DNA of 64,000 bases from Bdellovibrionales bacterium (lineage in GTDB: Bacteria > Bdellovibrionota > Bdellovibrionia > Bdellovibrionales > Bdellovibrionaceae): NCBI GenBank assembly GCA_031370005.1, contig JANMPT010000043.1, forward strand, positions 1 to 64,000. The letters run 5' to 3'. The notes under the pieces are model-generated. The model was not told the origin of the DNA, searched no databases, and saw nothing but the letters and a program-made list of their open reading frames with translations. Each line of letters starts with the position of its first letter. The stretch's first letter is position 1. Made by a program: the position numbers and the translations under genes. Shown piece after piece: positions 2,603 to 12,434 of the stretch.

Positions 2603-4054
2603 ATGGATGTCAAAAAATCACCGAGCTTTAAAAGCGCGAAATACACAGCGATCATCAGCGACCTGCATTTATGTGAAGCGGAGCCAGTAAATCCGAAGTT
2701 TCCCCTGTGGAAAAAGTTTAAGACGAAACAGTTTTTCTTTGACGATATCTTCACAAGTTTTTTGCACGAAATTGAGAGCAAAGCAAAGGGCGAAAGCGTT
2801 GAGTTGATTCTGAATGGGGATATTTTCGATTTTGATAGCGTTTTGCGACTTCCGGAGGAACCAATTTTTAGAGTGAGCCATCTAGAAAAAAGGCGGGGTC
2901 TTTTTCCGCGGTCAGAGCGCTCCTGCTATAAAATTAAAGTAATTTTAGAAGACCATGCTATGTTCGTTAGGGCCCTTCGGGAGTTTATCCGTCATGGACA
3001 TCGCATCGTGTTTGTTATAGGAAACCATGATCTAGAATTACATTTTCAAGACGTTCAAAAAGAAGTGCGCCATGCCTTGGATTTGACGGAGAGTCAGCAA
3101 AGCCAGGTGCGTTTTGTAGAATGGTTCTATATTTCTAATGAAGACACCCTGATAGAGCATGGAAATCAGTATGATCCTTATTGCCTTTGTGAGGACCCAA
3201 TTAACCCCTACGTTCAGGGATACAACTATATTTCATTAAAGTTGCCGTTCGGAAACCTGGCCTGCCGTTACATTATGAATGGACTCGGATTTTTTAATCC
3301 CCACGTGGATTCGAATTATATTATGGGCCTGAAGGAGTATGTGACTATTTTCCTGCGATATATGGCTCGCGCCCAACCCTTACTAGTCTTTACTTGGTTT
3401 TTTGGCTCCATTGTTACGATGCTGCAGTCGTTTAAAGACCGTTTGGCCGCTCCGATTCGTAACCCTTTAAAAATCGAAGAAAGAATTGAACAGATAGCCG
3501 AAAAGGCAAATGCAGAGCCCAGAATGGTAAGGGAGCTCAAAGAGCTTTTTGTTGCACCGGCGGCAAGTAACCCATTTTTACTAGCCAGGGAGCTATGGTT
3601 GGATAGAGCCTTTTTGATCGGGGTCGCCTTTTTTTTGATTTTTCAGTTATTGATTTTTATTCGCCAGGTCTATGACCTTTCATTTTTCTGGGCCTTTATT
3701 CCCTTGTTTTTTATGCTGCCATTTTTTCTTTTTTATAGCCAGTCGATCACCTCGATGGTTTCAAGTTATAAAGAGCCAAACGAAAGAGTTCTAGCGATGA
3801 CCAGTGCGATTGCCAGGGTAAAGCGAGTTATTTATGGGCACACGCATACAGTTCGACACGAGATGATTGGTGCAGTTGAGCACCTGAACGCCGGCTGTTG
3901 GTCGCCGGCCTTTTTGGATATTGAATGTACGAAGCCTATTGATCAGAAAACTTATGTATGGCTTTCCCCCCAAGAGACCGGGGAGCGGCGAGCCGAACTT
4001 TATAAGTTTATCGAAGGCAAATCACATTTATATATGTCTTCAGGCAAGCGCTAG
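2603..4054 (+). CDS. Calcineurin-like metallophosphoesterase with an inserted pair of transmembrane helices
   Basis: Motifs ISDLH, NGDIFD, GNHD, EHGNQYD and GHTH. A hydrophobic hairpin (AFLIGVAFFLIFQLLIFI..FFWAFIPLFFMLPFFLFY) lies before GHTH. Confidence 0.85.
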   Translation: MDVKKSPSFKSAKYTAIISDLHLCEAEPVNPKFPLWKKFKTKQFFFDDIFTSFLHEIESKAKGESVELILNGDIFDFDSVLRLPEEPIFRVSHLEKRRGLFPRSERSCYKIKVILEDHAMFVRALREFIRHGHRIVFVIGNHDLELHFQDVQKEVRHALDLTESQQSQVRFVEWFYISNEDTLIEHGNQYDPYCLCEDPINPYVQGYNYISLKLPFGNLACRYIMNGLGFFNPHVDSNYIMGLKEYVTIFLRYMARAQPLLVFTWFFGSIVTMLQSFKDRLAAPIRNPLKIEERIEQIAEKANAEPRMVRELKELFVAPAASNPFLLARELWLDRAFLIGVAFFLIFQLLIFIRQVYDLSFFWAFIPLFFMLPFFLFYSQSITSMVSSYKEPNERVLAMTSAIARVKRVIYGHTHTVRHEMIGAVEHLNAGCWSPAFLDIECTKPIDQKTYVWLSPQETGERRAELYKFIEGKSHLYMSSGKR

Positions 4055-4082
4055 CTTAAAGGTCGAGGCGTTGTGCGCCGCA

Positions 4083-4101
4083 TGACAAATAAAATTTGTC
4101 A
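4083..4101. promoter_or_regulatory. Perfect inverted repeat TGACAAAT-AAA-ATTTGTCA upstream of the histone gene; candidate operator
   Basis: An 8-bp arm palindrome read directly, 60 bp upstream of the ATG at 4162. Confidence 0.4.
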
Positions 4102-4161
4102 AGAACCAGGGGCTATGCAAACCTCATAGTGTTTTAAAAGCGTAAACGGAGGCTAAAAACT

Positions 4162-4356
4162 ATGCCAGAAGTACTAGTTGTAACTAGCAAGGTAAAGAAA
4201 TTGATCAAAGAAAAAGGCGGAATGAACACCTCCGCAGAAACGATCGACGTTTTAAGCAAAGCAATTGAACAACTCTGCTTAAAAGGTGTAGACAGTGCGA
4301 AAGCAGATGGCCGCAAAACCGTTATGGCTCGTGACATCGTTATTGATCATTTATAG
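4162..4356 (+). CDS. Bacterial histone (Bd0055/HBb-type histone-fold protein, DUF1931-like)
   Basis: 64-aa basic protein with a GGAGG RBS and the histone-fold end 'AKADGRKTVMARDI' (RKTV..RD signature of HMf-like histones). From memory it is near-identical to B. bacteriovorus Bd0055. Confidence 0.93.
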   Translation: MPEVLVVTSKVKKLIKEKGGMNTSAETIDVLSKAIEQLCLKGVDSAKADGRKTVMARDIVIDHL

Positions 4357-4385
4357 AAAGTTGCCACTACGGGCAGCGCGCAAGA

Positions 4386-6437
<2,052 letters not shown>

Positions 6438-10999: not shown

Positions 11000-11123
11000 T
11001 CCAGATACCAGCGGTCATTAGCCAGAATCGGCTATAAAATATTTGCAAGGCATCAATCTTATGTTTAAATCACTGAAGATTATTGAAACAGAATGTTTCA
11101 GCGCATCACTCAAGGATGAATAT

Positions 11124-12434
11124 ATGTTAAAAAAGTTTGTTGTACTTCTTGCATGTTTAGGAGCTTTCCAACTCACTGGCTGTACGTCGAATGATTCCAA
11201 GGTAGATGGCGGCGACGAAATAGCTATCGATGGAGCGCCCGAAGGTTCTGCCGACGTCGAAAAGGTCGAAGGCGAACAAAGTCTTGATATTGCAGCGGAT
11301 GACTCTTCAGCAGCGCTGACTAATGATGCACTTCCAGAAGAGGCTCTTGGCGAAGCAGACACGGCAGCCAAGTCGCCGACAAATGCACCGGCAGACGCAC
11401 CTCCGGCTTTGCCAGAGGTTGCCGCAGATGAGCCCCCACCACTTGTAGAAACACTTTCCCCTGAGACAACACTTCCTGCAGATACTTTGGGTTCATCTAC
11501 AGCAGAAACAACTCTTCCGGCTATGGAAACGTCTGAGCCAACTTCCGAGGCGACATCTTCTTCGAAAGCTGTTGTTGACGAGCCGAAGGCAGAGCCGAAA
11601 CACGTAGCCTCATATCGCAAAATTGAACACAGCCCATGGAAAGAGGGTGGAAAAATCCTCAACACCGTTTATGTGGCTCGTGATGGCGACTCTTGGGGAG
11701 GCGTCAGTAAAATGATTTATGGCGCAGAAAAAGCATCTGATTTGAAAAAAATGAACCCGGCAATTAAGGGTCGTAAGCTAAAAGTTGGTGACAAAGTATA
11801 TTACAACTCGCCACATCGCCCCGAGGATGAAACGAAGGTTCTTACTTATTATGAGGACAGCGGAGTTGCCCCAGATGTTTACATTGCTAAAAGCGGCGAT
11901 AACCTAAAGAAGATAGCAAAAGAACTTTTTGGCAGCGAGCAAGGCTGGAAGGAACTTTATGCAACGAATGATTTCGAGTCCAAAACAGCTCTCGACGAGG
12001 GGACTCAAATTAAATATTGGAGAACCATAGCGGCGGAACCTAAAGAAGTTGCCCAGGCGCAAATGCAAGAGCCGGCTCCTGTGGCTGCAGACCTGCCACC
12101 AGCCCCGCAGCCAACTGATAACATGGCACCACCACCCGATGTAGTAGCAGCAAATGAAATGGCACCACCACCGCCGCCACCAGTTGAGGCGATGGCACCA
12201 CCACCACCGCCGCCACCAGTTGAGGCAATTGCGCCGCCGCCACCGCCACTACCTCACGAAGTGGCAAAAAAACATAACAAGGCAGATGAGTCAGGAAATC
12301 CCCTTGAGGATGATCAGATGACAACGCTTGCGGCGGGAGCTGTCGTAGCCGTTGGTCTTGCTCTTTTTATGATAATGAGAAGGCGCCGCAAGAAAGAACT
12401 TGAGCAGGCTATCCAAGACACTCAAGTTGGATAA
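11124..12434 (+). CDS. LysM-domain lipoprotein with acidic and polyproline linkers and a C-terminal TM helix
   Basis: Start at 11124 after AAGGA. Lipobox LTGC; two LysM-like units (YVARDGDSW..VSK, YIAKSGDNLKKIAK); C-terminal hydrophobic helix followed by RRRRKK. Confidence 0.8.
   Translation: MLKKFVVLLACLGAFQLTGCTSNDSKVDGGDEIAIDGAPEGSADVEKVEGEQSLDIAADDSSAALTNDALPEEALGEADTAAKSPTNAPADAPPALPEVAADEPPPLVETLSPETTLPADTLGSSTAETTLPAMETSEPTSEATSSSKAVVDEPKAEPKHVASYRKIEHSPWKEGGKILNTVYVARDGDSWGGVSKMIYGAEKASDLKKMNPAIKGRKLKVGDKVYYNSPHRPEDETKVLTYYEDSGVAPDVYIAKSGDNLKKIAKELFGSEQGWKELYATNDFESKTALDEGTQIKYWRTIAAEPKEVAQAQMQEPAPVAADLPPAPQPTDNMAPPPDVVAANEMAPPPPPPVEAMAPPPPPPPVEAIAPPPPPLPHEVAKKHNKADESGNPLEDDQMTTLAAGAVVAVGLALFMIMRRRRKKELEQAIQDTQVG
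12123..12248 (+). repeat. Intragenic tandem repeat encoding (M/I)APPPPPP(P)VEA units
   Basis: atggcaccaccacc starts at 12123, 12159 and 12192, with a degenerate copy at 12228. Confidence 0.8.

Follow-up and report, generated by a model that had tools for sequence, protein, structure and literature searches.

A Bd0055/HBb-type histone gene in a Bdellovibrionaceae genome, with a conserved candidate promoter module upstream

The window analysed here, a stretch of 64,000 nucleotides from a Bdellovibrionales bacterium (contig JANMPT010000043.1 of assembly GCA_031370005.1), carries at positions 4162–4356 of the + strand a real gene, the orthologue of bd0055/HBb, whose protein type is already known. 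The product is a 64-aa, α3-truncated 'bacterial dimer' histone, as judged by identity, predicted fold and selection. A chance origin is excluded by the E value of the match to the known structures (2e-33), the fold match and the low dN versus relatives. A sequence-only reading had proposed a histone of the Bd0055/HBb type, and identity, fold, kept residues, synteny and purifying selection agree that it is the orthologue. Bacterial histones came as a surprise in 2023, and HBb/Bd0055 is by now represented by five PDB entries and has been the subject of at least two dedicated papers (Hocher et al. 2023, PMC10627809; Hu et al. 2024, PMC11317129).

The histone ORF starts with ATG and stops with TAG. 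It is a singlet without any added domain, with the 64 aa lying inside a 72-codon open frame and with its own ribosome-binding site. This Shine–Dalgarno sequence, GGAGG at 4148–4152 (+), lies 9 nt 5´ of the ATG, bears out the 'strong RBS' noticed at first and has counterparts in similar GGAG motifs of relatives. The recommended sequence comparison with Bd0055, performed with phmmer against the PDB, found 61 of the 64 residues identical to 8FVX and 8FW7, the Bd0055 structures (PMC10627809), and to 8CMP, 9EZZ and 9F0E, the HBb structures (PMC11317129). The differences from Bd0055, put at about three by the sequence-only reading, are exactly three against the PDB sequence: A2P, Q20G and E44D. The signature A...GRKTV.ARD is present in the protein as A46-KAD-GRKTV-M-ARD58. 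The description of a basic 64-aa ORF holds for the ORF and its length, but the basicity is only mild, with 11 K+R versus 9 D+E, a pI of 8.85 and a net charge of about +1.6; the same pI is computed for the Bd0055-identical protein encoded at another locus (L024).

The AlphaFold model of the histone, with 105 homologues as input, has a mean pLDDT of 83.9 and low confidence at both termini. In this model α1 begins at residue 2, a helix spans residues 25–48 and a three-residue helical turn lies near residues 56–58, corresponding to a short α2 and a one-turn α3. The proposed Foldseek comparison with HBb and HMf returned a histone-fold match: the best five hits were all HBb entries (E 1.3e-7 to 1.8e-6, TM 0.76–0.81), HLp (TM 0.72) and HTkC (TM 0.70) ranked below them at 34–38% identity, and HMfB was far weaker (E 0.12, TM 0.50). 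Alignment with 8BDK reveals a four-residue gap in α2 with respect to HMf-type proteins. Pfam PF00808 is barely over its cut-off (22.2 versus 21.4 bits), and no NCBIfam model, the archaeal histone model included, exceeds its cut-off for this ORF. As to the remark that such genes are often called hypothetical, most of the 120 homologues listed are indeed nameless, but many JGI entries read 'histone H3/H4' and only two read 'hypothetical'.

The 'bacterial dimer' category comprises α3 histones clustered by sequence closeness to HBb (PMC11390915), and the predicted protein possesses every sequence and fold feature examined for this class. Assignment to the ZZ histones (Bd3044 type) was rejected, as the ORF has no zinc finger and its similarity to four ZZ histones is limited to about 50% identity with their histone part.

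All 22 residues named in the literature for DNA binding, dimerisation or the failure to tetramerise are kept, and most of them are invariant in 105 sequences. They include DNA contacts or conserved lysines (T8, S9, K10, K12, K13, K16, N22, S24, K52, T53 and R57), the clamp residues (D49, R51 and D58), the dimer core (V11, L31, I35, L38 and I59) and S45, A48 and I61, which are as in Bd0055. Of the substituted residues, G20 and D44 are each the most frequent at their position in homologues (47/104 and 53/104, respectively), and Pro2 is rare.

The strong purifying selection suggested by the near-identity to Bd0055 was confirmed in a comparison with six congeners. By the NG86 method with JC correction, dN of the histone gene is 0.007–0.024 and dS 0.75–1.8, rough values given its mere 63 codons, versus dN of 0.067–0.131 for the upstream metallophosphoesterase gene and 0.13–0.21 for ligA downstream, both with dS above 2 or saturated. 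The reduced dS of the histone gene would fit selection on codon usage in a gene with high expression. Across all 65 relatives examined, pN/pS of the histone ranges from 0.010 to 0.367.

By analogy with its characterised orthologue, the window histone very probably acts as an HBb-like homodimer that binds the DNA backbone irrespective of sequence, bends and compacts the chromosome and serves as a major nucleoid protein, without nucleosomes. The same mechanism as in HBb is proposed because of the near-identity of the two proteins. Dimerisation would take place through α2, and the dimer would contact the DNA backbone at minor grooves via the L1–L2 loops and the start of α1, leading to an HU-like bending by dimers, with no tetramers or nucleosomes. 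For HBb, two co-crystals, tethered-particle motion and simulations indicate that single dimers bend DNA (PMC11317129). In Bdellovibrio bacteriovorus HD100, Bd0055 holds abundance rank 12 of 2,125 proteins, is enriched in the nucleoid and withstood attempts at deletion (PMC10627809). The description of an abundant protein with dimeric, non-nucleosomal DNA binding therefore matches what both papers report for HD100, while 'essential' goes one step too far: deletion failed in that strain, but the authors term essentiality probable rather than proven (PMC10627809). High abundance, probable essentiality and an expression peak late in the growth phase would be carried over from HD100 to the window histone, for whose abundance, nucleoid association and essentiality the low dN, the reduced dS and the occurrence across the family are no more than indirect hints.

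How Bd0055 itself binds DNA is a matter of dispute, with bent dimers on one side (PMC11317129) and a sheath around straight DNA on the other (PMC10627809). According to the latter, the same protein would, at high density, coat straight DNA as dimers, with the nucleohistone filament as the main cellular state. The 8FW7 co-crystal, EMSA ladders, the lack of FRET and the loading of more than 60 dimers per 147 bp speak for such a filament (PMC10627809), as does the finding that the residues of the basic ridge and the acidic face are essentially unchanged in the window histone. However, single dimers bend DNA in two further co-crystals, in tethered-particle motion and in simulations (PMC11317129), and the existence of the filament in vivo is called unestablished by PMC10627809; we regard it as an unlikely main state. 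Far less probable is a binding mode altered by the three substitutions, chiefly by Pro2 in the N-terminal arm. Pro2 occurs in 0/104 homologues and 1/65 family loci, and the 8FW7 filament crystal exchanges N-terminal arms between dimers (PMC10627809). Nevertheless, position 2 varies freely among homologues (A, S, T), positions 20 and 44 hold common residues, and removal of residues 2–5 (AEVL) from Bd0055 affects neither wrapping nor DNA binding (PMC10627809).

The chance that the window histone belongs to the tetrameric, DNA-wrapping face-to-face or nucleosomal type (HLp, HTkC or HMfB) is close to negligible. The fold is shared, as the TM values of HLp and HTkC illustrate, and a tetrameric face-to-face type has been described (PMC12701072). 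Yet identity to HLp, HTkC and HMf-type proteins is 27–38%, versus 95–97% to HBb, and the predicted protein lacks the His48 of the tetramer interface that this class forms with the end of α2 and α3, so that assignment to the class was rejected on sequence grounds. It also keeps S45, A48 and I61, the residues whose change to the archaeal ones switches wrapping on (PMC10627809). HBb-like dimers that bend DNA remain the preferred reading.

The histone is an ordinary, expected gene for its host family, and the window adds one more data point to its conservation. In the protein search, all 1082 of 1082 candidates of 35–112 residues counted as histone relatives, and the closest named records carry the titles Bdellovibrio, Bdellovibrionaceae or Pseudobdellovibrionaceae. 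Every family genome searched has a histone match at E ≤ 0.001 (151/151, its own genome included), and the match is strong (best E ≤ 1.1e-20) in 144. The other seven genomes are 72–93% complete; one of them has a histone copy truncated at a contig end, and the remaining six show a weak match only, which probably corresponds to the second (ZZ) histone. A record titled 'Bacillota bacterium' (L078) holds a 97%-identical histone copy; its 3.4-kb contig probably comes from Bdellovibrio and was mis-binned.

In its own genome (3.2 Mb, 99.8% complete), a single-protein search found one histone copy. A profile of 105 homologues run over all six-frame ORFs retrieved no second histone (next best E 1), and four ZZ-histone queries found no paralogue. 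Since the genome also encodes four HU/IHF-family genes, the histone need not be the sole chromosome organiser. In many single-contig relatives the gene lies 46–54 kb from base 1 (for example G020:C1:46521, G102:C1:48571 and G129:C1:54248); if these records begin at dnaA, the histone would be origin-proximal, with a raised dosage during replication.

A ZZ-finger query matched 93 of the 151 family genomes, nearly always in open frames of 147–257 codons, a length matching that of the ZZ-histone fusion. Four of the six congeners, however, encode the ZZ finger in an ORF of 75–76 aa (L155:2971–3201(+), L156:2940–3167(+), L157:2983–3210(−) and L158:298–525(+)), and the 1.7–6.2 kb fetched contain no histone domain. 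Short candidate frames are also seen in two further genomes (G012 and G144). This histone-less ZZ finger in related genomes is a modest addition beside the known histone. The same query found no match in the window's own genome, and no Bd3044-type second histone was found in the assembly. The neighbours that flank the ZZ-finger locus in the congeners map to positions 1–2300 of another contig of the assembly (C53), at its very start, so the missing gene may reflect an assembly gap rather than loss.

The gene upstream of the histone, at 2603–4054 (+), encodes a 483-aa calcineurin-like metallophosphoesterase (PF00149 over its cut-off) with a hydrophobic segment around residues 335–380 that probably spans the membrane; no specific NCBIfam family exceeds its cut-off for this protein. 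Downstream and convergent, at 4386–6386 (−), lies ligA, the NAD-dependent DNA ligase gene (NF005932 and TIGR00575 over cut-off). Neighbours were counted in 65 relatives, composed of the 29 best-scoring loci and 36 picked at roughly one per genus. The metallophosphoesterase is upstream of the histone in 58/65 and a convergent ligA lies no more than about 1.5 kb away in 57/65, descriptive counts given that kin are not independent and one locus has only 143 nt upstream. By these synteny counts, both genes are conserved neighbours by position.

The stop codons of the histone gene and ligA are 29 nt apart, and this interval (4357–4385) contains a weak hairpin (4363–4377), without a T-run on the + strand. 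Most of the relatives folded have instead, between the two genes, a strong hairpin with runs of A and T on its flanks. In the window genome the convergent histone and ligA transcripts may overlap. A search of Rfam over positions 3900–4600 gave nothing at E up to 0.1. Elsewhere in the window, at 11043–12434 (−), a 463-aa ORF has a lipoprotein-like signal at the N-terminus, long acidic and Pro-rich segments and, at the C-terminus, a hydrophobic anchor with RRRRKK after it.

A conserved module with three elements precedes the histone gene. Its putative −35 element is TTGTCA (4096–4101, +), conserved and matching TTGACA at 5/6 positions. It is followed at 4114–4124 (+) by TATG-C-AAACCT, conserved in relatives as well and predicted to be an extended −10 with a degenerate −10 hexamer. 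A GCGCCGC box (4075–4081, +), the candidate site of a regulator, starts 21 nt before the −35 element and is also conserved. The AAACCT hexamer lies 17 nt after TTGTCA, and by the established anatomy of σ70 promoters the spacing of the module would fit one with a near-consensus −35, a spacer of 17 nt, a TG that extends the −10, and a degenerate −10 hexamer. The hexamer matches the −10 consensus at only 2/6 positions (A at position 2, T at position 6), which is why a consensus σ70 scan upstream of the histone found 0 sites. On this sequence evidence, we infer that the histone is transcribed from its own σ70-type promoter about 40 nt upstream.

The combined −35/−10 pattern occurs in 45/66 upstream regions (17/36 of the distant ones), versus 0.035 on average over 200 base shuffles, and the box in 41/66, versus a shuffle mean of 1.4; both counts overstate conservation, as the loci are kin and the patterns were composed with the sequences already in view. 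The distance from box to −35 among the 45 loci is 21–23 nt in 28 and 28–37 nt in 5, with the box unmatched in 12. In its own genome the strict module pattern occurs once, at the histone gene. A shared regulon is unsupported by a scan with crude gene calls and 20 shuffles, in which the loose pattern gave 6 intergenic occurrences versus 4.45 expected, and box plus −35 gave 3 versus 1.85. The palindrome TGACAAAT-AAA-ATTTGTCA (4083–4101) was rejected as a conserved operator: its left arm is not retained outside some congeners, unlike its right arm, which is the −35 element and is kept in relatives.

By eye, the σ28 consensus TTAAG-N16-CCGATA (PMC3627812) is not seen upstream of the histone. In PMC3627812, promoters were mapped for the attack phase only, and synthetic σ70-type promoters work in B. 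bacteriovorus (PMC12622784). The main texts of these two papers do not mention bd0055, nor was a description of its promoter found in the main-text literature searched; supplements may hold start-site tables. Tentatively, the module could be an activator-dependent σ70 promoter specific to the histone, whose box would bind a regulator timing synthesis to the late growth phase, ahead of nucleoid condensation in the progeny, although we regard this as a possibility with the odds somewhat against it. If true, such a promoter would offer a direct handle on the cell-cycle control of a bacterial histone. The candidate promoter and box are a modest addition, testable in the genetically tractable B. 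bacteriovorus.

Compared with known systems, the window histone shares the histone fold and the RKT..RD clamp with HLp (9QT0), HTkC (9F2C) and the nucleosomal HMfA/B. These proteins, however, wrap DNA as tetramers or hypernucleosomes, and the residues of the HMf-type tetramer are missing here. With the 'bacterial dimer' category it has in common the RKTxxxxD motif, the α1 lysines, the short α2 and the truncated α3, and no difference was found. At the level of the locus, those encoding a Bd0055-identical protein have the metallophosphoesterase and the upstream motif as in the window, and a convergent ligA in 7/8. The window differs from Bd0055-type loci in lacking a strong T-tailed terminator in the histone–ligA interval, and its assembly differs from the Bd0055/HBb system in that no second histone was found. 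The closest counterpart is Bd0055/HBb of B. bacteriovorus HD100, also of 64 aa, with the same predicted fold and the same named DNA-contact, clamp and dimer residues; the window histone departs from it by its three substitutions and by its host, a different genus of the same family.
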